Origin: an uncultured Ignavibacteria bacterium
GTDB lineage: Bacteria > Bacteroidota > Ignavibacteria > Kapaibacteriales > UBA2268
Assembly (NCBI GenBank): GCA_903862655.1
Contig: CAIOZA010000019.1
Location: 6,960-70,959 of the forward strand
DNA length: 64,000 bases
Reading direction: 5' to 3'
A program made the position numbers and the translations under genes. Of the stretch, positions 25,535 through 64,000 are shown in pieces. Under the pieces are notes generated by a model. That model did no database searches. It was not told the DNA's origin and was given only the letters and a program-made list of their open reading frames with translations. Position 1 is the first letter of the stretch. The number at the start of each line of letters is the position of its first letter.

Positions 25535-25736
25535 AAATCTCCTGTTCGAAATTTTTACAAATTTAATTAAATATTCAATAAAAACACTATTCATACAATA
25601 TTATTCAATTATTATCTTCTCAGCAAAGGTATTATTCACAATTCGGATGCTCCATAATAATTTTTTTACCTCAATGATCAGAAAGATCTTCATACTTATC
25701 AGACTTATTTTTTAACTCACTTAATTGGAGCTTTTG

Positions 25737-27308
25737 ATGAATTCGAAAGGCAAAATTCTTTGGATTGATGACGAGATTGAACTATTGCGAGCACACATCA
25801 TCCTTCTTCAACAAAGAGGTTATTCTGTAGAAACCGCATCTAATGGAGAAGATGCAATTGAGCTATACAGAACCAATCACTATGACCTGACTTTTCTCGA
25901 TGAATCAATGATTGGTATATCCGGACTGGACACACTGCCACTTTTGAAAGAGATAGATCCATCAACACCTGTAGTTATGGTTACAAAAAATGAAGCTGAG
26001 AGTGTTATGGAAGATGCTATTGGCAAAAAGATTGATGATTATCTTACAAAACCTGTTAATCCTGCGCAAATACTTGCTGCTTGCAAGAAGTATCTGGAAT
26101 CAGAAAGAATCAGTCAAAATAAAATTACTCAGGATTATATACAGGGATTAGGTGTGATTAATTCCAGATTAAATGAAACTTTATATTGGGATGACTGGCT
26201 CGATATTTATCAAAAGCTTGTGAATTGGTCAATTGAACTTGACAAGTACCCTCAGATAGGCTTTCAGCAAACATTGCAAGATCAATTTCGGGAATTTAAC
26301 TCAGCATTTTCAAAATTTGTCGAAGATAATTACCACGACTGGATATTCAATGAAAAAGATGAATTTACTCCTACTCTATCTCCAGGTATAGTAGAAAAAC
26401 ATTTGGTTCCTTTCCTGAAATCAGGAAAGCCAGTCTTCTTTATTGTTATAGATTGTATGAGAATCGATCAATGGCTCATGATGGAAGAATTATTGAGACC
26501 ATTCTATACATTCAAGAAAGACTATTATAGTGCCATTCTTCCAACAGCAACACCTTATGCAAGAAATGCTATTTTTGCCGGTCTTTTTCCACAAGATATT
26601 CAGAAACACTACCCTCAATATTGGGTGAACGAATTGAATACTGAAGAGACTAAGTTGAATGCTTTTGAGAAGGAGTTACTTGATGAACAATTGAAACGAA
26701 AGAAAATAGATTTAAGAACGCCTTTAAATTATATTAAGATACATGACACGGATTTTGGAAAAAAGATTGAAAATGATATTGGAAAATATACTAAAAGTCA
26801 TCTTACTGCAATAGTTATCAATGCTGTAGACATGATTGCGCATTCAAGGTCTGATTACGCAATTCTTAAAGAAATAGCACCTGATGAATCAGCATATAGA
26901 AGTCTTACACAATCTTGGTTTCAACATTCAAGTATATTTGGAATGCTGAAAACAATTTCAGAAAATAAGGATATTAAAGTTGTGATTACAACCGATCATG
27001 GTTCTATCAGATGCATGAGGGGCATAAAAGTAATTGGGGATAAAGACACGTCAACAAATCTTAGATACAAATTCGGAAAGAATGTAAAAGCTGAAGAGCG
27101 TTATGCAGTTCAGATAAAGGATCCTACAGAGCTAAGACTTCCCAAATTGGGCTTAACCGTAAATAACATAATAGCTAAAGAAGACTATTATTTTGTTTAC
27201 CCAACGGATTATCATTACTTTCTTCAAAGATACAGAGATAGTTTCCAGCATGGAGGCATTTCAATGGAAGAAATGATTGTTCCCGTAATCGAAATGGATC
27301 CAAGATAG
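25737..27308 (+). CDS. porX: PorX-like response regulator: CheY-like receiver domain fused to a PglZ (alkaline-phosphatase-superfamily) domain
   Basis: Receiver motifs (ILWIDDE...; DLTFLDESMIGISGLD phospho-acceptor region; VVMVTKN; K at ...DYLTKP) followed by a ~400-aa PglZ domain. This is the architecture and size of the T9SS regulator PorX. An in-frame TTG at 25725 is an alternative start. Confidence 0.75.
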   Translation: MNSKGKILWIDDEIELLRAHIILLQQRGYSVETASNGEDAIELYRTNHYDLTFLDESMIGISGLDTLPLLKEIDPSTPVVMVTKNEAESVMEDAIGKKIDDYLTKPVNPAQILAACKKYLESERISQNKITQDYIQGLGVINSRLNETLYWDDWLDIYQKLVNWSIELDKYPQIGFQQTLQDQFREFNSAFSKFVEDNYHDWIFNEKDEFTPTLSPGIVEKHLVPFLKSGKPVFFIVIDCMRIDQWLMMEELLRPFYTFKKDYYSAILPTATPYARNAIFAGLFPQDIQKHYPQYWVNELNTEETKLNAFEKELLDEQLKRKKIDLRTPLNYIKIHDTDFGKKIENDIGKYTKSHLTAIVINAVDMIAHSRSDYAILKEIAPDESAYRSLTQSWFQHSSIFGMLKTISENKDIKVVITTDHGSIRCMRGIKVIGDKDTSTNLRYKFGKNVKAEERYAVQIKDPTELRLPKLGLTVNNIIAKEDYYFVYPTDYHYFLQRYRDSFQHGGISMEEMIVPVIEMDPR

Positions 27309-31062: not shown

Positions 31063-31521
31063 ATGAAAATATTTTTAATGTACTTTATTATGACAATTTC
31101 TTCCTGCATAATAGCGAATGCTCAGAGCGACACGTTGGTTATTACTAAGAAGAATTCGATAATTGAAAGATATTCTGTTTCACAGATTCAAAAGATTATA
31201 TTTGAGAATATTACAGATGTTCTAGAACATCAGTTCATTAACAAAAGCCTTCTATTGACAGGTAATTACCCTAACCCTTTTGCTGAAATGACAAATATCG
31301 ACTTTGAAATTTCAAGTGCTGGTAATGTTGAAGTCATTATCTTTGATAATTCTGGAAGCCAGATACAAATATTAAAATGTGAGAATTGTTCTTCAGGAAA
31401 GAATTCATTACTGTGGGATGGTTTTGACCTAAAAAAGAATAAAGTTCAATCCGGTATATATTACTATGAGGTGTGTTCCAAAAATGAAATCCTTAGCAAA
31501 CAAATGATTTTGGCAAAATAG
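31063..31521 (+). CDS. Minimal T9SS cargo: signal peptide, ~45-aa segment and a T9SS C-terminal sorting domain
   Basis: N-terminal signal peptide (MKIFLMYFIMTISSCIIANAQ). C-terminal ~85 aa (LLLTGNYPNPFAEMTNIDFEISSAGNVEVIIFDNSGSQIQIL...SGIYYYEV...) matches the Por_Secre_tail / T9SS type A CTD pattern (NYPNPF ... GIYFY...). Confidence 0.65.
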   Translation: MKIFLMYFIMTISSCIIANAQSDTLVITKKNSIIERYSVSQIQKIIFENITDVLEHQFINKSLLLTGNYPNPFAEMTNIDFEISSAGNVEVIIFDNSGSQIQILKCENCSSGKNSLLWDGFDLKKNKVQSGIYYYEVCSKNEILSKQMILAK

Positions 31522-36011: not shown

Positions 36012-37493
36012 TTAAATTTCAGGATATTTAGGATTATTTGAATGGAGAGGTGAATGATTCCTACAAATATAAGTATTTAAAACTGTTTTAATTGGAATTT
36101 TGACAAGCCGAAATGATCTTGTATTTATATTCATTCTAAGGTAAGTAAAATTTATAACCGACAAAACGAGTCCTATAGGAAGCCAAAAGTTAGGTGAACT
36201 AAAGTTATTGCCAGAAATAAAATTTATAATAATTTGTACGATTATTATATAATATAATAATCTGATTAACCTCTGCTCATATTCACTGAAGTAGCTCAAT
36301 ATTTTTTCATTTTTGGTTAATTTGATCGTTACAACAATTAAGCTAGTAAAAAAAGAAAACAGGAATATAACTCCAATTGTGCCTAATTCCGCCAGAACAG
36401 TAGAAAGAGTAAAATCAGAGAATACTAATTCTGGGTGAATTTTGTTGCAAGAAGTTAAACCCAATCCGATACCTTGAATTGGATAATGCTTCCAGATATC
36501 AATAGATTGTTGATAGGTATTTAATCTTGATCCAAATGACTCACCAAAAACCTGTTTATCGTCATTCCCGGCATTAGTAGCAAAATGAAAGATACCTTCT
36601 ATTCTCTGCTGAAATAATTCGATTACACTTACTCCTACATATTCTGAAAAAAGCAGATCAGCTAGAGTAATAATTACAACAAATGAAAGAATTAATGTTG
36701 AGTATCTAATGATATGTTGTTTTTTTTGAACTACTAGCATACCAGCAAAAATAAGAATTACTCCTACGAATCCTGTCATTGAAAAAGCAAGTAACATCCC
36801 AATAGACGCAAAGACAAGCATAGTAAAAATAATTATTTTACTTTTAAAAAAGTGTTTTTGTTTATTAATAATCGGGACTATTAAAAAAGCCAGCATGTAT
36901 GTATTGAAAGTACCTAAAGCTGATGGTTCAGAGAATATTGAGGTAGCTCTAAAAAAATCACCATAATGAAGACTCAATTGATTGAAAGAATCTACTCCTT
37001 CTTCTGCCGCTCTCGACATGAAACTAACATTATTGTAAACTATCCAAGCCAGGGGTAAATCCAAAGCTCTTGCAATAATCTGGTAAATCCCAAAAATATT
37101 AATAAGTAAACCTAGAATAAGCCATGTTTTAATTACCTTATCCCATTTTGATATATCAATTGGCAAAAAGATGCAAATAATTCCGAATAAAAAGAGTTCA
37201 ATAAAGTGAACAAATGATTTAAAAAATTGGAAAATCATATCGGTCTCGCCATAATATATGGCTGTAGTTGAGGATATAATAATGGAAACAAATAGTCCGA
37301 ATAATATTAAATGAAAGATATTATAGGAATATTTAACTTGAATACCATCCCAAATCAGTTTTTTAAGAGCATATATATAAAAGGCCAGAAGTGCAAAATC
37401 GAGAATAGTTACTCCATATCCACTTATCGAGAAGAATTGAAAGCCTGTAAAAAAGAACCCTATAAATATTATTTGGAGAAGAAATATTTGCAT
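36012..37493 (-). CDS. O-antigen ligase / Wzy-like polytopic membrane protein
   Basis: 493 aa with about 12 predicted TM segments and a large extracytoplasmic loop (...RAAEEGVDSFNQLSLHYGDFFRATSIFSEPSALGTF...) reminiscent of the Wzy_C / O-antigen ligase domain. Confidence 0.55.
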   Translation of the reverse strand: MQIFLLQIIFIGFFFTGFQFFSISGYGVTILDFALLAFYIYALKKLIWDGIQVKYSYNIFHLILFGLFVSIIISSTTAIYYGETDMIFQFFKSFVHFIELFLFGIICIFLPIDISKWDKVIKTWLILGLLINIFGIYQIIARALDLPLAWIVYNNVSFMSRAAEEGVDSFNQLSLHYGDFFRATSIFSEPSALGTFNTYMLAFLIVPIINKQKHFFKSKIIIFTMLVFASIGMLLAFSMTGFVGVILIFAGMLVVQKKQHIIRYSTLILSFVVIITLADLLFSEYVGVSVIELFQQRIEGIFHFATNAGNDDKQVFGESFGSRLNTYQQSIDIWKHYPIQGIGLGLTSCNKIHPELVFSDFTLSTVLAELGTIGVIFLFSFFTSLIVVTIKLTKNEKILSYFSEYEQRLIRLLYYIIIVQIIINFISGNNFSSPNFWLPIGLVLSVINFTYLRMNINTRSFRLVKIPIKTVLNTYICRNHSPLHSNNPKYPEI

Positions 37494-37656: not shown

Positions 37657-38631
37657 TTAAATCAATGCATTTTGGTGTTTAATTTTCAATTTTTCTAACA
37701 TATCCCTTGTCATTGAGTCAAGATCATAAGAAGGCATCCAGCCCCACTCCTCACGAGCAGATGTATCAACTACAGTATCAGGCCATGAATCAGCAATACT
37801 CTGACGAAAATCCGGCAAATAATCAATTTCAAATCCTGGCATATATTTTTTGACAGAGTCTGCCAGAGTTTTTACATTAAAACTCATTGATCCAAGATTA
37901 AAGCTACTGTGATGTTTAAGATTCTCAACTGGAGCTGCCATCAAATCTATTACTGACTTTAGACAATCCGGCATGTACATCATAGGTAACTTGGTATCTT
38001 CGCGTACAAAGCATGTATATTTATTATTCTTAACTGCTTCGTAAAATATTTCTACTGCATAATCCGTAGTTCCGCCACCCGGTGGAGTTTCTGCAGATAT
38101 AATCCCCGGGAATCTAACACCACGTACATCTAACCCATATTTATTGAAATAATAATCGCAAAGAACTTCTCCTGCAACTTTAGTAACGCCATACATAGTT
38201 GTTGGATGCAAGGGTGAATCCTGCAAAGCATTTTTTGGACAGTCTGGTCCCCAGACAGCAATAGAACTGGGAATAAATATCTGAGCCATTTCATATTTCA
38301 AGCCGAGATTAAGGACGTTGATAGATCCATTCATATTGACATCCCAAGCAAGAGCGGGATTTTTTTCTCCCACACCTGATAGAATTGCTGCCAGATGAAC
38401 AATAGTGTCTATTTTGTAATCATTAATAAGCTTTTCAAAAGTAGCAATATCCTTAATATCCAGAATATGGAAAGGACCTTTGTTCTTCATACTGTCAGAT
38501 GCATCGTGCATATCTGATGCAACTACATTATTTGCACCATACTTCTTTCTCAATTCACCAATTAATTCAGAACCAATCTGCCCCAATCCACCAGTTACTA
38601 ATATGTTCTTAATATCTTTTTTCATAAACAT
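37657..38631 (-). CDS. tdh: L-threonine 3-dehydrogenase, NAD-dependent epimerase/dehydratase (extended SDR) type
   Basis: ILVTGGLGQIGSEL Rossmann motif and Y..K catalytic pair (YGVTKVAGE). Lies 25 bp downstream of kbl in the same orientation. Confidence 0.75.
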   Translation of the reverse strand: MFMKKDIKNILVTGGLGQIGSELIGELRKKYGANNVVASDMHDASDSMKNKGPFHILDIKDIATFEKLINDYKIDTIVHLAAILSGVGEKNPALAWDVNMNGSINVLNLGLKYEMAQIFIPSSIAVWGPDCPKNALQDSPLHPTTMYGVTKVAGEVLCDYYFNKYGLDVRGVRFPGIISAETPPGGGTTDYAVEIFYEAVKNNKYTCFVREDTKLPMMYMPDCLKSVIDLMAAPVENLKHHSSFNLGSMSFNVKTLADSVKKYMPGFEIDYLPDFRQSIADSWPDTVVDTSAREEWGWMPSYDLDSMTRDMLEKLKIKHQNALI

Positions 38632-44863: not shown

Positions 44864-46783
44864 ATGACGATGAAGATAATATCTAAATTGAATCTATCGA
44901 TTATTCTCTTTCTAACAGCCATTACAATATACATAATGACTGCCGCACCGGATCTCATGTTTACAGATTCAGGTGAACTCGCCGGTGTATGCGTAACCTT
45001 GGGTATAGCTCACCCAACAGGTTATCCACTATTCGCCATTATCGGACATTTATTTTCTCTTATTCCTATGGGTTTGAGCAAAATATATCAGCTCAATTTA
45101 ATGGCTTCGTTCTTCACGGCACTATCTTCGGTAGTTTTTTTTCAAACATTACTTATTGTTTTTGAATTAGTCAACAAAAAGAAAAATCAGCAGAAAACTA
45201 AGAATAAACAAAGTCAGGTAAATGAATCAAACCTTTTAGAAAATAGAAATATTCTGCTCATTTCTTTTTTCACATCTTTAATATATTCTTTTGCCACAAC
45301 TGTCTGGCAACAAGCTAATGCTATTGAAGTTTATTCATTACAAGCTATGATGTTTAATCTTGTAATCTGGTCAATTTTAAAATCATCCTCAGCCAAAGAA
45401 AATCAATTCAAATTTTATATTTTTACTGAATTTTTATTGGGGTTAAGTTTTACAAACCACATGCAAACAGTCCTGCTGATTCCGGGAGTCCTATATTTAT
45501 ACTTATTCGGTATCGGAGATTCACATAAATTTGATAAGTTAAAATTTAAAGAAATCCTTTGGTTATTTATCCCATTTGTTATTGGATTGAGTCTTATATT
45601 GTATCTTCCTCTGAGAAGTATGTCTATGCCTGATTTTAACTGGGGCTTTGTTTCAAGAGGCTGGAGTAAGTTCATATATCATGCATCTGGCAAGCAATAT
45701 CAGATTTGGATGTTCTCTGATAGTGCCTCCATATCAACAAATCTTGGTAAATTTTTCTCCCTACTTCCTTACCAGCTTGGCTGGATTGGGCTAGTTCCTT
45801 TTTTGCTCGGAATTTACTTTTTATTCAAGCAGAACAGAAAGTTACTTTTCTTTCTTCTAATTTTATTATTCACTTGTCTATCCTATAGTGTTAATTATAG
45901 TATTCATGATATAGATTCATATTTTCTTCTTGCTTTTATTTCGATTATCCTATTAACTGGGACAGGATTATTTTTTGTAATTTCTAAGTATCCAAAATTA
46001 GTTGCAGCAATTGTAATAATTCCAATAATTTCGCTAATACAAAATTTCGATTCAAATGATAATTCTAAAAATTATCTAGTTCCAGAATATAGCAGAATTC
46101 TTGGAGATAACCTTGAACCAAATGCTATTATTATTTCAGCTCAATGGGATTACTGGTGTTCTGCTTTTTGGTACAAGCAGAAAGTTGAAGGTTACCGACC
46201 TGATGTTGTTCTTCTTGAAAAGGAATTGTTACGTAGAACATGGTATCTAGAGCAATTCAAGAAATGGTACCCAGCAACAGCTAAAACAGTTGAGAATGAA
46301 GTAAATTTGTATCTGGGACAACTTGAATTATTCGAATCTGAGAAGGAGTATAATCCTGTCCTGATTCAGCAGTATTATGTAGGACTAATAAATGCTTTGA
46401 TAGACAAGAACTTTGGTAAAAGACCAATTTATGTTACCATTGATGTGGTAGAGAATCCTACAGATGCAGACATTGCTTCAAAATATCAAAAAATCCCACA
46501 GGGTTTTGCATTTCGACTCGAGAAAGATAATAAAATTTACCAACCTAATCTCGACAAAATTGATATTTCTAAATTCCTTGAATTCAAAAAAGACAGAAAT
46601 AATCATCTTGTAGAGGGCATTTTGAGTGTTGCATCATTAAACGTTACAAACATTGGTCGCTATGCCCAAGCAACGAATAATACAGTAACAGCACGTAAGT
46701 CCTATGAAATGGCTCTGAAGATTGATCGGTCGAATCAAAATGCGCAAATGGGGTTGCAGCAGTTATCGAATATCAGGCAATAG
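44864..46783 (+). CDS. DUF2723 / TMEM260-like polytopic membrane protein (GT-C-fold glycosyltransferase-like) with C-terminal TPR region
   Basis: N-terminal loop APDLMFTDSGELAGVCVTLGIAHPTGYPLFAI is the hallmark of the DUF2723 family (acidic DxGE loop after TM1, then GIAHPxGYPL). About 11 TM helices, then a soluble ~240-aa C-terminal domain. Confidence 0.7.
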   Translation: MTMKIISKLNLSIILFLTAITIYIMTAAPDLMFTDSGELAGVCVTLGIAHPTGYPLFAIIGHLFSLIPMGLSKIYQLNLMASFFTALSSVVFFQTLLIVFELVNKKKNQQKTKNKQSQVNESNLLENRNILLISFFTSLIYSFATTVWQQANAIEVYSLQAMMFNLVIWSILKSSSAKENQFKFYIFTEFLLGLSFTNHMQTVLLIPGVLYLYLFGIGDSHKFDKLKFKEILWLFIPFVIGLSLILYLPLRSMSMPDFNWGFVSRGWSKFIYHASGKQYQIWMFSDSASISTNLGKFFSLLPYQLGWIGLVPFLLGIYFLFKQNRKLLFFLLILLFTCLSYSVNYSIHDIDSYFLLAFISIILLTGTGLFFVISKYPKLVAAIVIIPIISLIQNFDSNDNSKNYLVPEYSRILGDNLEPNAIIISAQWDYWCSAFWYKQKVEGYRPDVVLLEKELLRRTWYLEQFKKWYPATAKTVENEVNLYLGQLELFESEKEYNPVLIQQYYVGLINALIDKNFGKRPIYVTIDVVENPTDADIASKYQKIPQGFAFRLEKDNKIYQPNLDKIDISKFLEFKKDRNNHLVEGILSVASLNVTNIGRYAQATNNTVTARKSYEMALKIDRSNQNAQMGLQQLSNIRQ

Positions 46784-52063: not shown

Positions 52064-53668
52064 GTGAAATTTCGCCAAAATCATATTTCTCAATACTTAT
52101 TAATCATTCTTACCACATCCATCATACCTTTGATGGTACTTTTTTTCTATCCGGATAAGATCGTAAATCTTTTCTATAATGATGCATTCTACTATTTTAC
52201 AATAGCGACTAATTATCTTCATAAAGGTGTTTTCTCATTTGATGGAATAAATCCCACCAATGGATTCCATCCTCTTTGGCAAATAATTACTATAGTGCTA
52301 TTTAAAATAGCATCAAATAGTGACTTTAAGATTATTCTTACATTGTTGGTTTGTATTGTTCTTACATCATCAGCAAATATTCTTTTTTTCAGTTCTGCTT
52401 ATAAAATAACTAAGTCTAAACTTTTAGCATTTATAACAATCATTCCCGGATATTTTTATTTAATTTTTGGACTTGCAATTGGTAAGCACTATTCAATCAT
52501 ATCTCCTGTAAATGGCATGGAGACTTCTATTTCGTTATTTTTATTTTCTTTGCTCCTGTACTTTTTAATAAGATGTTCCGAAGGAAAGCAGTTTTATAGA
52601 TTTAAATATTACACTATTTCTTTGCTAGTTTCATTGCTTTTTCTGAGTAGACTGGATGAAATATTTATTATTTACACATTACTTTTGTATGTCTTCTTCA
52701 GTTCGGATAAATCGAATAGATTATTGAATTCGATTAAGTTTTTAGTCTTTCCTATTCTAATGATATCCGGATATTTAATTTATAATCAATTATCAACTGG
52801 TATGCTCTTACCTGTTAGCGGATTGCAGAAATCAGGGTTTTCATTTGATAATGTTGTGCATATTATCCGTGGACTATTCTTAGGACGTTCTTTTAATTAT
52901 TTCTGGGGAGAGCATTTGTATTCAAGAATTCTACCCATTGTTTATGTATTAATTGCTACTGGCTTTTTCCTAGTATTATTTTTTAAAAAGTCATTTAACA
53001 AAAATAATTCTCTTATTGCTCCACTTGCATACATTGCGATGGCTTCAATATTAAAATTAACCTATCATATATTCTTTACTAATCTCTGGGATCAGGGACA
53101 ATGGTACTACAATATTGACATAATAACTAGTAATATTATTGTTGCTTATTTTATCATTACAAGGTATCCATCAATTTTGAAAATAAAGTACATAAGCATT
53201 TACTCAGCTATTTTGATATTATGTGTGTTATTTTGGAATGCATTCGCGAATTTGACAACTGAAACCAGAAATGAAATGTTATGGAGAAATAGAGAAAAAA
53301 TCAAAAATGAAATCATCAAAATAGATAAATTCCCAAAAATAATTGAAATGGATGACGGGATAGTTACTTATGCCTTGGGATTTCGGGCATTATCTGGTTT
53401 TGGGTTATGTATGGATAAAGAAGCATTCAAAGCAAAAAATTCTGGAAAGTTATTTGACCTAGCATATAAAAGAGGATATAGGTACATAGCGTCGTTAAAT
53501 TATTTTAAAAATCCTGATAATATTCCAAATACATTGAATAATTATAAGGATTTTGTTTCAATCCCATTTTTTGCATTAGAAAAACAAGACCTTGATTTTT
53601 GGCAATTTCAGTCAATCTACTCTAACAATTTAACAGGATTTGTACTAATAAAATTTGAAAAAAAATAG
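52064..53668 (+). CDS. Hypothetical polytopic membrane protein; candidate GT-C-fold glycosyltransferase
   Basis: GTG start. About 11 TM helices in residues 1-390, with a short acidic/aromatic first external loop (NLFYNDAFYYFTIA) right after TM1. Followed by a ~145-aa soluble C-terminal domain. This is the general layout of GT-C enzymes. No specific family recognised by eye. Confidence 0.5.
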   Translation: MKFRQNHISQYLLIILTTSIIPLMVLFFYPDKIVNLFYNDAFYYFTIATNYLHKGVFSFDGINPTNGFHPLWQIITIVLFKIASNSDFKIILTLLVCIVLTSSANILFFSSAYKITKSKLLAFITIIPGYFYLIFGLAIGKHYSIISPVNGMETSISLFLFSLLLYFLIRCSEGKQFYRFKYYTISLLVSLLFLSRLDEIFIIYTLLLYVFFSSDKSNRLLNSIKFLVFPILMISGYLIYNQLSTGMLLPVSGLQKSGFSFDNVVHIIRGLFLGRSFNYFWGEHLYSRILPIVYVLIATGFFLVLFFKKSFNKNNSLIAPLAYIAMASILKLTYHIFFTNLWDQGQWYYNIDIITSNIIVAYFIITRYPSILKIKYISIYSAILILCVLFWNAFANLTTETRNEMLWRNREKIKNEIIKIDKFPKIIEMDDGIVTYALGFRALSGFGLCMDKEAFKAKNSGKLFDLAYKRGYRYIASLNYFKNPDNIPNTLNNYKDFVSIPFFALEKQDLDFWQFQSIYSNNLTGFVLIKFEKK

Positions 53669-56434: not shown

Positions 56435-57183
56435 TGAAACTGAAACTACACGTATGGAGACAGAAGTACGGCAAATCAAAGGGTTATTTCGAACAGCATG
56501 ATGTTGATTATGTTTCGGAAGATATGTCATTCCTAGAAATGCTAGATGTTCTTAATGAAAAACTTCTAAAGTCTGCCAAAGAACCTATTGCATTCGATCA
56601 CGACTGCCGCGAAGGTATCTGCGGTTGCTGCTCTCTTACAATCAATGGCAATCCTCACGGACCAGAGAAAGCAACAACAACATGCCAATTGCACATGAGA
56701 AAATTCAAAGATGGCGAAACTGTTTATATCGAACCATTCAGAGCTAAGGCATTCCCTGTAATCAAGGATCTTGTTGTGGACAGGACTTCACTCGACACAA
56801 TCATTCAGTCAGGTGGATTCATTAGCGTCAACACTAATCAACCTCAGGATGCAAATGCACTTCCTGTTGACAAGAAACAGGCTGATCTGGCAATGGATGC
56901 TGCCTCATGTATAGGTTGCGGTGCGTGTGTTGCATCATGCCCCAATAGTGCCGCTATGCTCTTTGTTTCTGCAAAGGTATCTCACATGGGTCTTTTACCT
57001 CAGGGACAACCAGAACGAAAGAAAAGAGTTTTGGCAATGGTAAACACTATGGATGCCGAAGGCTTTGGTACCTGCAGAAACTTCTATGAATGTGAAGCCG
57101 CATGTCCAAAAGAAATTTCGGTACGATTCATTGCGAGGATGAACAGAGATTTTCTGAAGGCTAGTTTGTCAAAGGAAGATTAA
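56434..57183 (+). CDS. sdhB: Succinate dehydrogenase / fumarate reductase iron-sulfur subunit
   Basis: 2Fe-2S ([10 protein letters not shown]), 4Fe-4S ([12 protein letters not shown]) and 3Fe-4S ([12 protein letters not shown]) Cys motifs. Confidence 0.9.
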
Positions 57184-57214
57184 TTCCAGTTTAAATATAT
57201 TTTTTATTTATAAG

Positions 57215-57240
57215 GTGGCTTCAAATGCCACCTTTTTTTG
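57215..57240 (+). terminator. Rho-independent terminator of the sdhCAB operon
   Basis: GGTGGC-TTCAAAT-GCCACC followed by TTTTTTTG. Confidence 0.7.
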
Positions 57241-57266
57241 TGCGACATCTATAACAAATGTAATAA

Positions 57267-58172
57267 TTAGCTACTAAATACACCTTCTTTTCCTGATTTT
57301 ATTTTAGGCAAAAGGATCCCACCGATTATTAATATTAAACCAAAGAATGTTGACTCTAGAATACTTTCTCCTATTACCAAACTGATAAAAAATAAAGATA
57401 AAAAAGGAGACAAATAGACGAAAGCACTAACCTTTGCCGTATTTTCTGATAAACTTAATGCTCTAAGCCAAAAGACAAATGTTAGCCCCATCTCAAACAG
57501 GCCGATATAAAATGAACCAATTATTCCCGAAAAACTAAAATTTTGTAAGAATAAATCCCCATTAATTAAAACTAAAATTAAACAAAAAATAAAACCAAAA
57601 AAAAAGCTCAGAAATAGTTTAAGAGTGCCATCCTGTTTCATTTTTAAATTAAGTATCCAGAATGTTGACCAGATTAGAGAACTAGAAACAGCGAGAATTG
57701 TTCCTAATAAATTATTAAATTTTAATGCAAATAAATCTCCTTTTGTTCCAATTAATACAACTCCGAAAAAACTTAAAATCAGACCAATAAGAGTAAGCGC
57801 ATTTATCTTTTGTTTTAAAAATACTGCAGAGAATATCACTATGCTCATTATCCATGTGTAATTTAGAGTCAGTGCTTCCTGAGCAGGTAATAGTTCGTAA
57901 GCTCTAAATAACACGAGATAATAGAGAAATGGGTTCAGAAACCCAATCAACGCAAATACTAAAATATCCTTGAAATTCAATTCTTTGAATAACTTAATCT
58001 TACCTGTAAAGATAAGAATAAAAAGTAAAGCAACAGATGCTATAAAAGAAGATTGGAGAAGAAGATGAGTTGAATTTAATTCATTAAGTGAGAGCTTAAA
58101 AGCTGTAGCTACTGTTGACCATAAACAGACTGAGATCAATGCATAAACATAAGCTTTATTGCTGTTATTCAT
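57267..58172 (-). CDS. EamA/DMT-superfamily transporter, last gene of the polyprenyl-P-arabinose operon
   Basis: 301 aa, 10 TM helices, duplicated EamA halves. Starts 7 nt after the stop of the dprE2-like gene on the same strand. Confidence 0.8.
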   Translation of the reverse strand: MNNSNKAYVYALISVCLWSTVATAFKLSLNELNSTHLLLQSSFIASVALLFILIFTGKIKLFKELNFKDILVFALIGFLNPFLYYLVLFRAYELLPAQEALTLNYTWIMSIVIFSAVFLKQKINALTLIGLILSFFGVVLIGTKGDLFALKFNNLLGTILAVSSSLIWSTFWILNLKMKQDGTLKLFLSFFFGFIFCLILVLINGDLFLQNFSFSGIIGSFYIGLFEMGLTFVFWLRALSLSENTAKVSAFVYLSPFLSLFFISLVIGESILESTFFGLILIIGGILLPKIKSGKEGVFSS

Positions 58173-58179
58173 ACTTAAC

Positions 58180-58914
58180 CTAGAGATTCATTTTTTTAAA
58201 TATTGCTTCAGGAATATGCATAACTATAAACATTACTATTCTCCAAAAACCAGGAACGTAAGCTATGTCCTTTTTTTTCTCTATAGCATTAAAAATATGT
58301 TTACCGACAATTTCCGATGATGAAAATAATGGATTCTTTGGGATATCAGCTGTCATTGGAGAATCAACAAGACCAGGTTTAATTGTAATAATTGTTACTC
58401 CAGTTCCGGACAAACGATTTCTTAATCCTTGTAGGAAAATTGATAATCCCCCTTTTGCTGAGCCATATATATAATTACTCTTTCGTCCTCTATCCCCTGC
58501 TACAGATGTTATAACAGCTAGAATTCCTGAATTTCTCTTTTCAAAATATTCAGCAAATATTGAACTCAAAGTAGCAGCTGAAATAAAATTTATACTTAAT
58601 TGCTTTTGTATTTCGTTTGGCTTATTTAATATATCCTCTTGATTAGGTAATGTCCCGTATGCAATAAACGCTACATCGAAATTTCCAAAATCCTGTATAA
58701 TTTTTTCAAAAAGTTGTTCCTGCATATTAATATTTGAAATCTCCCATTCAAAAATTGAAGGAAGTACACCAGTCGCAACAAAAATATCATTCTTAACAGA
58801 TTCAAGTCTGTTAAAATTAATATCAACCAGTAAAACTTCAAGGTCTTTTTTAGCAAACTGCTTTATCGTTGCGACTGCGATTGCTGAGGTTCCGCCTATA
58901 ACTACTAACTTCAT
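58180..58914 (-). CDS. dprE2: DprE2 homologue: short-chain dehydrogenase/reductase, decaprenylphospho-2'-keto-D-erythro-pentofuranose 2'-reductase family
   Basis: Collinear match to mycobacterial DprE2 (Rv3791) over the full length: VVIGGTSAIAVAT vs LLLGGTSEIGLAI; FDVAFIAYGTLPN vs VDVAIVAFGLLGD; YGSAKGGLSIF vs YGSTKAGLDGF; C-terminus WRIVMFIVMHIPEAIFKK vs FRYVMMVLRHIPRSIFRK. Confidence 0.8.
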   Translation of the reverse strand: MKLVVIGGTSAIAVATIKQFAKKDLEVLLVDINFNRLESVKNDIFVATGVLPSIFEWEISNINMQEQLFEKIIQDFGNFDVAFIAYGTLPNQEDILNKPNEIQKQLSINFISAATLSSIFAEYFEKRNSGILAVITSVAGDRGRKSNYIYGSAKGGLSIFLQGLRNRLSGTGVTIITIKPGLVDSPMTADIPKNPLFSSSEIVGKHIFNAIEKKKDIAYVPGFWRIVMFIVMHIPEAIFKKMNL

Positions 58915-58927
58915 AGTTTAACTTTCA

Positions 58928-60229
58928 TTAATTATTTACTCTTCTCCAAAAAGAAGATGAAAATTTTGGATCAATATATTTTGAGAATTCTTTTACTTCG
59001 GGATAGAAGTGCATAAAATCAGATCCTGACATTCTGGAATCCTTTGCTGGATAGATCACTCCCCTATGTTCCTTAACAATGTCATCTAATGAAGTTAGAA
59101 AATCAAGAGTTCGTTTACCAGTCATCCTGAAATCGATAGCCAGAGTAATACCAGGTCTGGGGAATGATAACATCCCAGGTGATTTAATGTTACCGAATGT
59201 TTTTAAAACTGTCAGGAAAGAAGATAAGCCAGAATGATTAATCCTGGTGAGAATCTCTTTGAGTGCTTCTTTACCATTATTAAATGGTAAAACAAACTGA
59301 TATTGAATGAAACCATTTTTACCATAAGCATTATTCCATTTTCCTACAGCATCTAATGGATAGAAGAATGGCTCGTAATGAATTAATGAATTTAATTTTT
59401 TGTCAAATTGTTTTTGATAATACAGAACATTAAATAGATTAACACTGAGCTCATTTATGAAACTGGATTTGAATGGAAAATCAATTGAATGTTTAGTGTT
59501 GGCATACTTTGGTCCTGATTTTGCAAAATTCCCACTGGAATAAATACCTCTTCCTGATCTGGTTCCGGTTGATGTGCAATCAATCCATGAGACAGTAAAA
59601 TCATTTGTTAGATTGGCAAAATCATTAATTTCAAAGAAATCATTCAAACAATCAAATTTAACAAATTCAGCATCAATCATGCTGGAGTCTATTCTAAATA
59701 ATTTAATTTCAGCCCAGGTGATGATTCCCGTTAATCCAAGTCCACCTATTGTTGCTCTGAATAATTCCTGATTCTCGGAGTTGCTGCAAATTAATCTTTC
59801 ATTAGTAGATCTTAGCAATTCGAAGCAATTTACATGGCAACCGAAGGTACCCATTTTATGATGGTTTTTTCCATGTACATCATTAGCAATTGCTCCTCCT
59901 AATGTTACGAATTTTGTGCCGGGAGTAACAGCAAGAAAAAATCCTTTAGGTACAATTAATTTCAATATTTCATCAAGTGATACTCCTGCTTCAGCTCTTA
60001 GAACACCTTTATCCCAATCAACTGAGATAAATTTGTTCAAACCAGAACAATCGACTAATGTCCCATTTGAATTAAGACAGCTATCACCATAACTACGGCC
60101 TAAACCGAAGGGCAATACATTTCCGATTACGGTTGCTAAATCAGGAGCTTCGTTTATCCAACTATAATTAATGACTTGTTGATATTCAGGGGTCGGATAC
60201 TTACCCCATGATTCATAAATACTTTTCAT
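58928..60229 (-). CDS. dprE1: DprE1 homologue: FAD-dependent decaprenylphospho-beta-D-ribofuranose 2'-oxidase family
   Basis: [11 protein letters not shown] vs Mtb DprE1 [34 protein letters not shown] vs [37 protein letters not shown] vs FWATVGGNGLTGII; C-terminal [25 protein letters not shown] vs (R)[24 protein letters not shown]. Confidence 0.85.
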   Translation of the reverse strand: [433 protein letters not shown]

Positions 60230-60232
60230 AGA

Positions 60233-61690
60233 TTATAAACTCAAAAACAAAAATACAATCATTAGAAGACCCATAAGATAACTCATTTTGTCCTTTGCAG
60301 TGAATACAATAGGATCATTATGCATTTCGCCACGGAAAGTCAGAAGCCACATTCTAGATATCCAGAGTAAAAGAACAAGACCGACAGGTAAAAGTAACTC
60401 AGGTTTCGAGTATAATCTTGTAATCTCAGGACTAAAAATGTATAACATGAAAACCAGAGTTGAGAGATAGCCACTTGTAATTCCCAATGGGAGTAAAAAG
60501 CTCAAATCATTGGTTTGATAACCTCGGCCATCAGTTCTTTGTTCACTGATTTCCTTTAGCGAATAAAGCTCCTGATATCGTTTTATAATTGCCAAACTTA
60601 AAAACAGAAAAATAGAAAAAGCAATCAACCATTTTGAAATTCCTACATTGGAAGTAATTCCGCCTGCTATCAATCTTATTGTATAAAGCAGGGAGAGTAC
60701 CATTATATCGATCAGAATTATTTTTTTTAAGCGAAATGAATATAAGGTTGTTAGCAGGAAATAAATCAGTAGTAAAAGTGAAAAATTATTAGGTAAAAAA
60801 TTAAGAGATAAAAACCAACCTATTATGAATAATACTTTGGCCACAATAAAAACAAGAATTGGATTAAGATTTCCTGAAGCTAATGGCCGACTTTTCTTTA
60901 TAATATTCTTTCTGTCTGATTCAAGATCCACCAAATCATTAATAATATAGACAAAAGATGCAATGAATGAAAAGCTTACAAATCCAATAACATTATTAAA
61001 AATAGAATTGAAATTCTTTATATCATGAGCAAGCAAGAAAGGCAAAAAAATTAGAATATTTTTTATCCACTGATATACTCTAAGCTCCTTGAAAATCTGA
61101 GATAATGAATTTTGCTTTTCATCTGAGTAAATAAAATCAACATTGCCACTTACTTTAATTACTTTATTTTTTAATGATGGAGATGGATTTACCAGATAAC
61201 TTTTTCTACAGCTTTCAAATACTGGCAAATCAGCCGTGCTATCTCCAATATAATCATATCCTTTATGTCCAAATAATTCTTCAAGTTTTCTAGCTTTATT
61301 GTTTGCTCTGTTATTATGATCTCTTTTACTAAAAATGACCTCGTCGAATATTGGTAGATACTCTGATACAGATTTAGCAATATTCTCAGTTGTAGCCGTA
61401 CTTAGAACAATTTTTCTGCCGATTGCCTTATTTTTATTTAATAAGCTTATAACATCAGAATTATAAGGGAATAAGGAAGCATTTAGTTTGGAATGATCAG
61501 TTACAAAATTCTTTAAATGATTCTTTCCTTTTAGAATAAGGAAAGGAATAACAAAGATATTGAATATATTAGATTTAATACATAAAATAGTGGATTCAAA
61601 TATACTATCAATTTTTATAAGAGAGCCATCAAGATCTGTTACCAATGGTATAGATATATCATGACTATTTGTATTATTTATCTGATTCAT
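60233..61690 (-). CDS. Fusion protein: N-terminal HAD-IB-like phosphatase domain plus C-terminal UbiA-family polyprenyl-phosphate 5-phosphoribosyltransferase (DPPR synthase-like)
   Basis: N-terminus has HAD motif I LVTDLDGSL, motif II LSTAT, motif III K...KARKLEELFG and motif IV GDSTADLPV. After a linker, an 8-9 TM UbiA domain with NDLVDLESDRKN (NDxxDxxxD) and a second D-rich region (HNDPIVFTAKDK). Start and stop overlap the neighbouring genes. Confidence 0.8.
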   Translation of the reverse strand: MNQINNTNSHDISIPLVTDLDGSLIKIDSIFESTILCIKSNIFNIFVIPFLILKGKNHLKNFVTDHSKLNASLFPYNSDVISLLNKNKAIGRKIVLSTATTENIAKSVSEYLPIFDEVIFSKRDHNNRANNKARKLEELFGHKGYDYIGDSTADLPVFESCRKSYLVNPSPSLKNKVIKVSGNVDFIYSDEKQNSLSQIFKELRVYQWIKNILIFLPFLLAHDIKNFNSIFNNVIGFVSFSFIASFVYIINDLVDLESDRKNIIKKSRPLASGNLNPILVFIVAKVLFIIGWFLSLNFLPNNFSLLLLIYFLLTTLYSFRLKKIILIDIMVLSLLYTIRLIAGGITSNVGISKWLIAFSIFLFLSLAIIKRYQELYSLKEISEQRTDGRGYQTNDLSFLLPLGITSGYLSTLVFMLYIFSPEITRLYSKPELLLPVGLVLLLWISRMWLLTFRGEMHNDPIVFTAKDKMSYLMGLLMIVFLFLSL

Positions 61691-62823
61691 ATGGTAGTTG
61701 CTATTTTTTTGTCAAATATCTGTAAAGCTACACCAATTACTTGATCCATATTGTAATATTTATAATCTGCAAGTCTCCCAGCAAAAATAACACTTCCGTT
61801 TAATTTGTCAATTTCATTTAAATACTGTTTAAATATTATTTCATTTTCAGGTTTAGGTATTGGATAATAAGGATCATTTTGACCAGGTATGTGGGCCAAA
61901 GAAAACTCCTTTGCTATTACTGTCTTACTAATATCTTTAATTTGGTTTCTATAGAAATGTTTAAACTCGGTGATTCTTGTAAAATCATAGTTATTAGGGT
62001 AATTTACCTGAGATACTTCCTGAAAACTTTCTAGGTTGAATGATTCTAGTTCAAATCTAAGACTTCTATATGGAAGTTGACCATGCACATAGTCAAAAAA
62101 GGAATCAATTGGACCAGTAAAAATAAGCTTATTAAACTTAATATTATTTATATCTGATTTAAATTCAGTGTTGAGCCTAAGTTCAATATTAGGATGATTG
62201 AGCAATTTTTCAAATATTGAAGAATATCCTTCTTTTGGTAATCCCTGATAAATATCCTGAAAGTATCTGTCATCTCGACTAATATTGACAGGAATTCTTG
62301 AAGTTACTGAATGATCCAGTTCTTCTGGTTTGAATTCCCATTGCTTTAAAGTATATCCCAAGAAGATATTTTTATATATGTAATCGGCGAGATAGCTTAA
62401 TTCAGAATTTTGGGAATCCTTAAGCTTTAGAATTGGAATCTTTGTGCCAAAACCATAGGTATTAATTAAAATTTCTTCTAATTTTGAAGCATAATGATTT
62501 GGGAAAACCATGTAAAGTGAGTTCAAATTAAACGGTACAGGAATCTTTAAACCCTCCACAGCTGCCAGGACCTTGTGAAAGTATAATTCCCAGTCAGTAA
62601 ATTGAGATAGATATTCCCAGACTTTGTGATTACTAGTATGAAATATATGAGGCCCATATTTATGAATTAGAATTCCATTAACATCTTTGTAATCGTAGCA
62701 ATTACCACCAAAGTGCTCCCTTTTGTCAATAACAAGTACTTTTTTATTAAGCTGATTTGCTATTCGCTCTGCAAGGACTGAACCGGCCAATCCCGCCCCT
62801 ACTATTAGATAATCATAGTTCAT
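61687..62823 (-). CDS. glf: UDP-galactopyranose mutase
   Basis: MNYDYLIVGAGLAGSVLAERIA...KVLVIDKREHFGGNCYD...IHKYGPHIFHT...YEYNGR-type UGM motifs throughout; 378 aa. Confidence 0.95.
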   Translation of the reverse strand: MNYDYLIVGAGLAGSVLAERIANQLNKKVLVIDKREHFGGNCYDYKDVNGILIHKYGPHIFHTSNHKVWEYLSQFTDWELYFHKVLAAVEGLKIPVPFNLNSLYMVFPNHYASKLEEILINTYGFGTKIPILKLKDSQNSELSYLADYIYKNIFLGYTLKQWEFKPEELDHSVTSRIPVNISRDDRYFQDIYQGLPKEGYSSIFEKLLNHPNIELRLNTEFKSDINNIKFNKLIFTGPIDSFFDYVHGQLPYRSLRFELESFNLESFQEVSQVNYPNNYDFTRITEFKHFYRNQIKDISKTVIAKEFSLAHIPGQNDPYYPIPKPENEIIFKQYLNEIDKLNGSVIFAGRLADYKYYNMDQVIGVALQIFDKKIATTI

Positions 62824-64000
62824 TTTCTAATATAACCTTTAATTTCTTCAACTGACGTTATTTTAAAAAGAAAAATAAATCCTCCAAATAATATAAAAGA
62901 CGCAATAGAAGAAATTATCTCATGAATTTTGAAATAATGATTCAATCCATATCCTCCCAAGCACGAGATGGCTGATATTGCAATACCTTTGAGCAAAGTC
63001 AAAAGAAAAGTAATATTGATTTCGTTTTTGATAATCCTAACCAACCCAAGGAATACCATAAATTCGCTAACAACTGTAGACCAAGCAGCACCAACAGCTC
63101 CATACTTAGGAATCAGAATGAAATTCAGTATGATATTGACTATTGCTCCTGCTCCAATTGCATACATTACTATTTTTTCTTTTTTCCAGGCTACAAGTGG
63201 TGGATAATAGGCTGTATTCATATACATAATTAATACAGTAAGCATCAGAACTTGCAGAACTATTATTGAATCTGTATAATTGCTACCAAAAGCAAATGTA
63301 ATGAAAAAAGATGAAAAAGTAAAAAACAGAAAAGAAAGAAAAGTACCAACATAAAATATAGCCTTAGAATAATTTCTTAAGGCATTTCTTTTTTCATCAA
63401 TAGATTGAGCCCTGGAAACATGCGGAAAAAATGCTAAATTTAATATATAAGATGGAGCAATTACTAATCCAACAAACCTAAATGCTGCAGCATAGATGCC
63501 GGTTTCAGCATCAGACTTCATAAAACCAAGCATTATAATATTCAATGAATTATAAATAGTAATGAAAAAGCTTGAAAACATTATTGGAATTGATGAGGTA
63601 AGAAGTTCTTTCATCATTGACTTATCGATATATAACCTGAGTTTTCCATATATTTTGTTGTATAGAGCCAGCATCCAGATAGCATTGAGTAATGTCGAGA
63701 TTACAGTAATAATCATAGCTGTGACAACATCTGAAGCAGTTTTAACAAGGAAAAGCACACCTATCAAATTCAAAGAGCTTGTCAGAACCTGTCGGATAGC
63801 TAGGATTCCCATTTTTTCGGTACCCTGATAAACCCAATCCATCATTATAGCCTGTGAAAATAAATTCACACCGGAAATAATTATCACAAGTTTTACTTCA
63901 AATGGTTTATCAATTAGCACGGCAAAGATAACCATAGCTACACAGGAGAAGATTGCGAGGATTAATCTATAAGTTGTTATCTGATCGGCGTATTTTTTTA
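62820..64000 (-). CDS. wzx: Wzx-like polysaccharide flippase (MOP superfamily), partial; the N-terminus lies beyond the window
   Basis: Polytopic membrane protein with the MOP/PST flippase arrangement. The reading frame stays open to the window edge (upstream residues ...KKYADQITTYRLILAIFSCVAMV...). Its stop overlaps the glf start (ATGA). Confidence 0.7.
   Translation of the reverse strand, partial: KKYADQITTYRLILAIFSCVAMVIFAVLIDKPFEVKLVIIISGVNLFSQAIMMDWVYQGTEKMGILAIRQVLTSSLNLIGVLFLVKTASDVVTAMIITVISTLLNAIWMLALYNKIYGKLRLYIDKSMMKELLTSSIPIMFSSFFITIYNSLNIIMLGFMKSDAETGIYAAAFRFVGLVIAPSYILNLAFFPHVSRAQSIDEKRNALRNYSKAIFYVGTFLSFLFFTFSSFFITFAFGSNYTDSIIVLQVLMLTVLIMYMNTAYYPPLVAWKKEKIVMYAIGAGAIVNIILNFILIPKYGAVGAAWSTVVSEFMVFLGLVRIIKNEINITFLLTLLKGIAISAISCLGGYGLNHYFKIHEIISSIASFILFGGFIFLFKITSVEEIKGYIRK

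Follow-up and report, generated by a model that had tools for sequence, protein, structure and literature searches.

A compact operon predicted to supply both galactofuranose and D-arabinofuranose donors in an uncultured Ignavibacteria bacterium

A stretch of 64,000 nucleotides from an uncultured Ignavibacteria bacterium (contig CAIOZA010000019.1; the whole stretch is called the window below) was found to carry a gene for UDP-galactopyranose mutase (Glf; 61687-62823, minus strand). Six closely spaced genes are visible there on that strand, and glf comes second among them. Together they form a compact operon that is predicted, from the proteins it encodes, to supply activated forms of two rare sugars with five-membered rings, galactofuranose (Galf) and D-arabinofuranose (D-Araf). 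All of its parts belong to known families and only their combination is new. The reading that we favor, with a probability of about 60%, is that the operon represents the published three-component pentofuranose system with DprE1/E2 epimerases, joined to a wzx-glf pair, and that arabinofuranose (Araf) is added in the periplasm.

What is new is the joining of the wzx-glf pair to a PPPRS-DprE1-DprE2 module (PPPRS, polyprenyl-phosphate 5-phosphoribosyltransferase), which is conserved in a deep clade of the FCB group at a fixed chromosomal site. A full-length EamA gene that closes the operon and a link to a large unannotated family of GT-C glycosyltransferases are also new. The Gram-negative D-Araf donor pathway, the periplasmic three-component logic and wzx-glf pairs were already known, and this limits the significance of the finding.

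Operon structure and enzyme assignments

The features of the operon and its surroundings are as follows.

62820..64000, minus strand: Wzx-like flippase of the MOP/PST family (PF01943 Polysacc_synt, PF13440), with its 5' end truncated by the window edge
61687..62823, minus strand: UDP-galactopyranose mutase (Glf), the gene of the finding (TIGR00031, PF03275)
60233..61690, minus strand: fused HAD/PRP phosphoribose phosphatase and UbiA-type polyprenyl-phosphate 5-phosphoribosyltransferase (PRP-PPPRS; NF006088)
58928..60229, minus strand: DprE1-like FAD oxidase, a predicted polyprenyl-P-ribose 2'-oxidase (NF053785, DprE1 structures)
58180..58914, minus strand: DprE2-like SDR reductase, a predicted 2'-keto reductase yielding polyprenyl-P-D-Araf (NF053786, YGSAK)
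57267..58172, minus strand: EamA/DMT transporter with 10 transmembrane (TM) segments, the final gene of the operon (PF00892, two repeats)
57212..57234, unstranded: G+C-rich hairpin between the convergent sdhB and eamA genes, a terminator-like site of 8 pairs
52064..53668, plus strand: unannotated glycosyltransferase of the GT-C fold ('mem534'), outside the operon (AlphaFold model, Foldseek)

The junction between the MOP stop and the glf start reads ATGA, a 4-nt overlap, and the glf stop overlaps the PPPRS start in the same way. The remaining gaps are 3 nt between the PPPRS and DprE1-like genes, 13 nt between the DprE1-like and DprE2-like genes and 7 nt between the DprE2-like and EamA genes. 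The overlaps on either side of glf imply that it is co-translated with both neighbors. A first-pass annotation of this DNA had described Glf as translationally coupled to a Wzx-family flippase and to DPA-pathway genes, and the ATGA at both glf ends, followed by gaps of 3-13 nt, bears this out. Its placement of both furanose-donor pathways in one operon also stands: a single operon of a diderm FCB-group organism encodes Glf, for UDP-Galf, and PPPRS with DprE1/E2 homologues, for polyprenyl-P-D-Araf.

The hairpin at 57212-57234 was called on the plus strand. It marks where the operon ends and lies between it and sdhCAB, which run towards it; no T-run follows the hairpin on the minus strand. A promoter scan of 57000-64000 returned 30 sigma-70-like sites compared to 36.5 in shuffled sequences, and FCB promoters lie outside the models of the tool that was used.

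The identity of Glf is well supported. The protein (378 aa) scored 434.8 bits over residues 3-374 on the TIGR00031 equivalog, which has a cutoff of 303.75, and matched PF03275 GLF (E 1.7e-71) and NAD_binding_8 (E 1.9e-21). It aligned end to end with 13 solved UDP-galactopyranose mutases (UGMs), all at E <= 1e-66, and the best of these was the D. radiodurans enzyme (3HDQ, E 5e-105). The FAD-binding Rossmann motif GAGLAG is found at residue 9. Glf scored 355 bits with the D. radiodurans UGM and 243 bits with C. jejuni 4MO2, a difference that hints at specificity for UDP-Galp/UDP-Galf over the mutase variants that act on UDP-GalNAc or dTDP-fucose. Horizontal transfer from Actinobacteria was considered and was not supported because Glf is nearer to the Deinococcus UGM than to the mycobacterial and corynebacterial UGMs and because the cassette occupies a conserved chromosomal site in a deep clade.

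The next protein (485 aa) joins a HAD/PRP domain at about residues 10-175 to a UbiA-type PPPRS domain at about residues 195-485. It scored 539.6 bits on NF006088 (cutoff 351) and matched DPPRS models at E 1.6e-40, and its sole solved homologue is the M. tuberculosis DPPRS (8J8J, E 1e-28). DLDGS at residue 19 carries the HAD DxD nucleophile and NDLVDLESD at residue 251 is an NDxxDxxxD motif. Residues D19/D21 and N251-D252-D255-D259 were invariant across 16 homologues.

The DprE1-like protein matched NF053785 at E 2.6e-103, with 347 bits against a 500-bit cutoff. It aligned with M. smegmatis DprE1 (4AUT) at E 1.3e-69, and across the DprE1 structures of M. smegmatis and M. tuberculosis the matches covered residues 38-421 with E between 1e-69 and 1e-67; the next family followed at 2e-07. 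The GKNHH and AKDSR motifs are retained. At about residue 370 (GITLAIDF), the protein has an Ala at the position that we take to be that of the benzothiazinone-target Cys. It is predicted to be intrinsically insensitive to benzothiazinones, which attack that Cys covalently in mycobacteria. The DprE2-like SDR matched NF053786 at E 3.3e-51, where its 174 bits fall short of the cutoff of 250, and PRK07102 with 254 bits against a cutoff of 267, and it has YGSAK at residue 150. A dprE2 gene comes after dprE1 in 54 PPPRS loci. Since both proteins score under the equivalog cutoffs, we infer their functions.

These scores would also fit a different explanation, in which the pair makes no Araf and the cassette delivers ribofuranose (Ribf) or another pentofuranose, and other epimerases do give xylofuranose (Xylf) in C. 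youngae O2 (PMC11127046). We consider this very improbable. Among solved homologues the DprE1 structures stand far ahead, the catalytic motifs are kept and, in the published survey, DprE1/E2 homologues go with Araf-containing glycans (PMC11127046).

Conservation of the cassette and its transporters

PPPRS loci were picked solely by similarity to the UbiA fusion, which gave 17 genome and 80 metagenome loci, and further loci were reached via Glf, the GT-C family and EamA; individual loci are numbered with an L. Of the roughly 100 PPPRS loci, 15, the window included, have Glf immediately upstream of PPPRS, and L108, which was found later via EamA, matches too. A neighbor-joining tree of PPPRS placed all the Glf-PPPRS loci in one deep FCB-group clade with a few Glf-less members. 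Their PPPRS identity to the window is 41-50%, the near relatives L018 and L108 excepted. The recurrence of this adjacency at such low identities argues that it is not accidental. An apparent glf frameshift in L007 was dismissed as an artefact, because it coincides with a run of N at a scaffold gap.

The cassette occupies a conserved TPR-DUF3467-GH57 chromosomal site, at which the order GH57-MOP-Glf-PPPRS-E1-E2 (E1 and E2 being dprE1 and dprE2) is one variant. Others are GH57-Glf-PPPRS without MOP in L024/L025, GH57-PPPRS-E1-E2 without Glf in L047/L073, and GH57-MOP-Glf without PPPRS in L021. Since the modules are separable at the same site, a shared product for the two sugars is not required, and the idea that Galf and D-Araf must enter one polymer did not hold.

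This separability could mean that the two sugars go to different glycoconjugates, Galf to a Wzx-dependent polysaccharide or general O-glycan and D-Araf to an unrelated use such as protein O-arabinosylation, with the operon held together only by co-regulation or by hitch-hiking at a conserved site. Consistent with this, P. aeruginosa uses the same donor pathway for its pilin with an unlinked GT-C, and the window has a TMEM260-like GT-C, from a family named for protein O-mannosyltransferases. Against it, ATGA overlaps flank glf on both sides, the fused order persists to 41-50% PPPRS identity, and no pilin gene or other specific protein target was found nearby. We regard separate destinations as possible and as the most credible of the alternatives, but not as the preferred one.

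The MOP protein has about 393 of roughly 469 codons visible, and its frame stays open through the window end. It matched PF01943 Polysacc_synt at E 3.7e-21, plus PF13440, and its orthologue in L019 is 27% identical (E 2e-19) to Wzx (RfbX) of E. coli K-12 O16. A hidden Markov model of the MOP family matched solely Glf-linked loci plus L091, with Glf present in 11 of the 12 matches, and thus MOP and Glf form the tightest pair. In the Kryptonia relative Ca. Chrysopegis, Wzx-Glf heads a GT2/Wzy_C/GT4 cluster without DPA genes.

Another possible explanation is that the MOP protein is no Wzx but is itself the polyprenyl-P-Araf flippase, the third component of the system, with Glf as a passenger gene. 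The clade cassettes lack the small GtrA-like or EmrE/ArnE-like flippases of other PPPRS lineages, a divergent Polysacc_synt gene lies directly upstream of PPPRS without Glf in L004, and the MOP-family member of L091 adjoins PPPRS. Set against this are the steady company of MOP with Glf, including with Glf alone in L021, the retention of PPPRS-E1-E2 without a MOP gene in L024/L025 and L047/L073, and the resemblance of the sequence to O-unit Wzx. In addition, we know of no MOP-family protein that flips polyprenyl-monophosphate sugars. Such a role for the MOP protein is unlikely.

The transporter that closes the operon is a 301-aa EamA protein, whose position is kept in L108. Small EamA-family transporters partner PPPRS elsewhere, such as a 122-aa protein on a Vibrio plasmid, and no GtrA-like gene is found in the cassette, unlike in other PPPRS lineages. 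The EamA protein was examined as an ORF14-type flippase. It shows no significant similarity to the 122-aa Vibrio partner and no specific likeness to polyprenyl-P-sugar flippases, no homologue occurs in the other roughly 100 PPPRS loci, and its membership of the very widespread DMT family speaks against a flippase role. The assignment was therefore not adopted, and the flipping of polyprenyl-P-Araf by this protein is kept as a speculative possibility.

Outside the clade, the partners of PPPRS are a GtrA-like 4-TM protein and a PMT_2-type or unannotated GT-C, often with DprE1/E2. Seven loci (L036, L041, L049, L058, L063, L072 and L089) have an extra module downstream of PPPRS, with or without E1/E2. 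It consists of an NAD-dependent epimerase (~313 aa) and an FAD/NAD_binding_8 amine-oxidase-like protein (~430 aa), usually followed by a GtrA-like protein, and it could make a further modified pentofuranose donor. In L020 (12005-15046 and 17178-17969), dprE1 and dprE2 are split by inserted TPR- and CHAT-domain genes and a reverse-transcriptase (RVT_1) gene lies just downstream, which suggests that mobile or defence-type elements have entered the cassette.

The upstream region and an unannotated GT-C family

Since the window ends within the MOP gene, the close relative L108 served as a proxy for the region beyond position 64000. Its proteins are 91% (MOP), 86% (Glf), 84% (PPPRS), 93% (DprE1), 80% (DprE2) and 72% (EamA) identical to those of the window. 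The Glf, PPPRS, DprE1 and DprE2 lengths are the same in both, EamA has 302 compared to 301 aa, and the full-length MOP protein of L108 has 469 aa. The order in L108 is TPR, DUF3467, a polytopic protein of 505-526 aa, GH57, MOP, Glf, PPPRS, DprE1, DprE2 and EamA, and all same-strand genes of this array abut or overlap. L019 has the identical order, GT-C-GH57-MOP-Glf-PPPRS-E1-E2. The polytopic proteins of L108 and L019 are orthologous (38% identity, E 4e-91) and lie co-oriented two genes upstream of MOP, and that of L108 matches the family profile of the 534-aa GT-C protein of the window at E 4e-18. A GH57 gene and an unannotated GT-C gene probably follow beyond the window end, by analogy with these relatives.

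The first-pass annotation had looked to the upstream region for an initiating phosphoglycosyltransferase (PGT), Wzy, and Galf- and Araf-transferases. L108 goes most of the way to answering this: upstream of its MOP gene are GH57, the unannotated GT-C, DUF3467 and TPR genes, and no PGT, Wzy or GT2. Likewise, no initiating PGT, Wzy or repeat-unit glycosyltransferases were found in the visible operon or in the upstream flanks of L108, L019, L020, L021 and L055, and neither the window nor 15 related loci have a GT2 gene within or next to the cassette. The GH57 protein is a homologue of 1,4-alpha-glucan branching enzyme and is encoded directly upstream of the cassette across the clade (L108 2234-3949, L019 6879-8597, and L020, L021, L024, L025, L047, L055 and L073). 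In L108, the GH57 gene is placed between those of GT-C and MOP, and its stop overlaps the MOP start.

The 534-aa protein of the window (52064-53668, plus strand) matched nothing in Pfam or NCBIfam. An AlphaFold (AF2) model built from 27 homologues gave a pLDDT of 89 and a pTM of 0.91, and the 30 best Foldseek matches to this model in the PDB were all GT-C proteins: DPY19, STT3/AglB/PglB, ArnT, ALG9/12, PMT, AftB, AftA and EmbB. By profile, its best PDB match was AftB at a non-significant E of 0.14, and its distant homologues carry PF13231 PMT_2. The family is large: in a library of 1.84 billion representatives, 4,824 clusters match at E <= 1e-30, and a looser threshold of E <= 1e-3 raises this to 15,993.

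Members of this family adjoin PPPRS-DprE1-DprE2 in L078 (directly upstream), L103 (as a divergent neighbor), L100, L062, L019 and L108. They occur 5-6 times among ~1000 open reading frames of PPPRS-centered loci, compared to ~0.01 expected by chance from a frequency of ~9e-6, an estimate that is rough because the library clusters are not abundance-weighted. We conclude from this excess that the family probably works with the Araf donor pathway. The family was also found in L022 and L023, and its invariant residues are D40, Y44, N66, G67, W72, E153, R196 and D198.

The window copy itself is a different matter. A distance of 3.6 kb, which includes sdhCAB, separates it from the operon's 3' end, and in close relatives it is found directly upstream of sdhCAB whether the cassette is adjacent or not; there is no GT-C inside the visible operon. 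Because it travels with sdhCAB, its nearness to the operon is probably incidental. The mem534 gene was therefore downgraded from a member of the cassette to a candidate transferase that is a paralogue of the operonic GT-C. The operonic gene itself is expected to begin shortly past position 64000.

Proposed mechanism, known systems and genomic setting

In the proposed mechanism, Glf would convert UDP-Galp to UDP-Galf in the cytoplasm. The UbiA domain would transfer the ribose-5-phosphate of phosphoribosyl pyrophosphate (PRPP) to polyprenyl phosphate, the fused HAD domain would strip the 5-phosphate, and the DprE1-like and DprE2-like proteins would epimerize C2 to give polyprenyl-P-D-Araf. From known pathway topology, cytoplasmic Leloir transferases encoded elsewhere would use UDP-Galf for a unit linked to undecaprenyl diphosphate (Und-PP), and the Wzx-like protein would flip this Galf-containing unit. 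Polyprenyl-P-Araf would be flipped separately, possibly by the EamA protein. A periplasmic GT-C would add Araf after the flip, and the candidates are the unannotated GT-C that close relatives encode two genes ahead of MOP and its distant paralogue at 52064-53668. That both sugars are placed on one glycan is speculative; if they are, the Galf unit would be decorated or extended with D-Araf after export, and no cytoplasmic two-furanose repeat unit would be formed.

The first-pass annotation had proposed just such a repeat unit, in which both Galf and D-Araf are put into one Und-PP-linked unit in the cytoplasm that is flipped by Wzx and polymerized by Wzy. A Wzx-family gene does head the operon, and a Wzy_C-domain protein is encoded 25 kb away at 36012-37493. 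A repeat unit with both furanoses is unlikely, to the point of being hardly credible, because polyprenyl-P-Araf is a donor for periplasmic GT-C enzymes (PMC11127046). The characterized users of polyprenyl-P-Araf or polyprenyl-P-Ribf are all GT-C enzymes that act outside the cytoplasm, after export (PMC11127046; P. aeruginosa), and it is cytoplasmic Leloir transferases that UDP-Galf serves. Further, no cytoplasmic D-Araf nucleotide donor pathway is encoded here, and no PGT, Wzy or glycosyltransferase genes flank the cassette in relatives.

Several of the results also weigh against the favored reading of a three-component system joined to wzx-glf. Neither the window nor any relative has a Galf-transferase, PGT or Wzy gene within the cassette or next to it. 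To this are added the site variants that lack MOP, Glf or PPPRS, the position of both DprE-like proteins under the NCBIfam equivalog cutoffs, the company that the window GT-C keeps with sdhCAB and the dissimilarity of the EamA protein to the Vibrio PPPRS partner and to polyprenyl-P-sugar flippases.

The favored reading draws on the systems described by Kelly et al. (PNAS 2024), in which three components, namely a HAD-UbiA PPPRS, a small flippase and a GT-C, attach side chains of alpha-pentofuranose on the periplasmic side once polymerization is done (PMC11127046). DprE1/E2 homologues accompany these systems where the sugar is Araf, such as in S. maltophilia (PMC11127046). Like ORF15-ORF14-ORF12 of C. 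youngae O1/O2, the cassette encodes a PPPRS that is fused at its N-terminus to a HAD (PRP) domain, and the catalytic motifs agree (PMC11127046). It also shares with the three-component systems the DprE1/E2-type epimerases, a DMT-type transporter gene and, by prediction, a GT-C partner. Unlike them, the cassette does not lie in an O-antigen or exopolysaccharide locus but is flanked by sdhCAB in the window and by GH57/DUF3467/TPR genes in relatives, and it carries Glf and a Wzx-like MOP gene. Its transporter is a full-length 10-TM EamA protein in contrast to a 4-TM protein, and its associated GT-C belongs to an unannotated family and is not GT136/EpsG-like.

D-Araf synthesis is by itself no exception among Gram-negatives. 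P. aeruginosa arabinosylates its pilin, the systems published in 2024 include Araf versions, and the fused PRP-PPPRS was found on 102 plasmid records, with listed hosts including Rhizobium, Vibrio, Burkholderia and Granulicella. A search of a phage collection with PPPRS gave one weak partial match and nothing more. In P. aeruginosa Pa5196/PA7 (PsPA7_6245-6251), pilin arabinosylation requires 6246 (PPPRS), DprE1 and DprE2, and the gene for the GT-C TfpW lies apart from the sugar genes. This is, as in the cassette, a Gram-negative polyprenyl-P-D-Araf pathway with PPPRS, DprE1 and DprE2; unlike the cassette, it has a separate phosphatase and a GtrA-like protein, has no Glf or Wzx, and targets pilin.

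In M. tuberculosis, the arabinogalactan locus holds ubiA (Rv3806c), Rv3807c, glfT2 and glf, with dprE1/E2, aftA and embCAB nearby (Rv3789-Rv3795). To our knowledge, it is the only well-studied system that clusters glf with DPPRS and DprE genes and, by analogy of gene content, it is the closest parallel for the combination in the cassette. The solved mycobacterial DPPRS and DprE1 are the closest structural counterparts of the cassette enzymes. Unlike the mycobacterial locus, the cassette lacks a galactan polymerase (GlfT1/GlfT2) and shows no sequence homologues of Emb or AftA, its phosphatase is a fused HAD in contrast to the PAP2 type, and it is found in a diderm FCB host with a Wzx-type flippase.

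This parallel could be taken further, to a convergent arabinogalactan-like surface glycan in the deep diderm FCB clade (Kapaibacteria/Ignavibacteria-like metagenome-assembled genomes), in which a Wzx-exported Galf chain is arabinosylated in the periplasm by the distantly AftB-like GT-C family. We think this clearly less likely than not. If true, the glycan would parallel the cell-wall polymer of mycobacteria, and the GT-C family would be a new class of D-arabinofuranosyltransferases. A limited literature search found no Gram-negative glycan that combines Galf and D-Araf, which is no proof of absence.

Two other Gram-negative systems share parts of the arrangement. In E. coli K-12 O16 (rfbX/wzx-glf-wbbH/wzy-wbbI), wzx is directly upstream of glf as in the cassette, but glf is followed by Wzy and the Galf-transferase WbbI in contrast to PPPRS-DprE1-DprE2. 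The Salmonella T1 antigen consists of Galf and Ribf tandem homopolymer domains on lipid A-core and is made by an ABC-transporter pathway (PMC11294581). It resembles the predicted system in being Gram-negative and in combining Galf with a PRPP-derived pentofuranose, and it differs in its Ribf and its ABC transporter (PMC11294581).

Animals have neither D-Araf nor Galf, and in mycobacteria the pathways that make these sugars are targeted by drugs. An operon that couples both donors in environmental Gram-negatives suggests that Araf/Galf glycans reach beyond the Corynebacteriales. The compact fused enzyme set (HAD-UbiA, DprE1/E2, Glf) could be of use for glycoengineering, and the large unannotated GT-C family offers candidate arabinofuranosyltransferases.

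The window has ~33% G+C and is otherwise ordinary chromosome, with genes for NADH dehydrogenase, RuvA, FeoB, RNase R, PdxJ, AsnB and SdhCAB. Several of the encoded proteins have C-terminal domains for type IX secretion and one belongs to the OmpA family, which fits a diderm member of the FCB group as host. The nearest named relatives of Glf and of the UbiA fusion come from metagenome-assembled genomes labelled Kapaibacterium, Chlorobiota, 'FCB group' and Ca. Chrysopegis.

Other genes related to glycans were found farther from the cassette. A second GT-C, at 44864-46783 (plus strand), is the 639-aa TMEM260-like protein (PF11028, E 1.6e-37), which might be another enzyme that draws on lipid-linked donors, or might O-glycosylate proteins. 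The membrane protein with a Wzy_C/O-antigen-ligase domain (36012-37493, minus strand) is encoded beside an NAD-dependent sugar epimerase/dehydratase (37657-38631, minus strand), 20-25 kb from the cassette, and this pair contains the sole Wzy-like genes in the window. A single GT2 protein is encoded in the window, 48 kb from the cassette (11586-13850, plus strand). It is 754 aa long, has two GT2 domains along with TPR repeats, and is a remote candidate for a Leloir, possibly Galf, transferase.

Two adjacent paralogues of ~1070 aa (4923-8135 and 8165-11389, both minus strand) combine Sortilin/BNR repeats with a type IX secretion C-terminal sorting domain, and a third protein with such a tail is encoded at 31063-31521. 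Finally, a response-regulator receiver fused to PglZ (527 aa; 25725-27308, plus strand) adjoins a 944-aa TIG-repeat/Fib_succ_major protein at 28121-30955.

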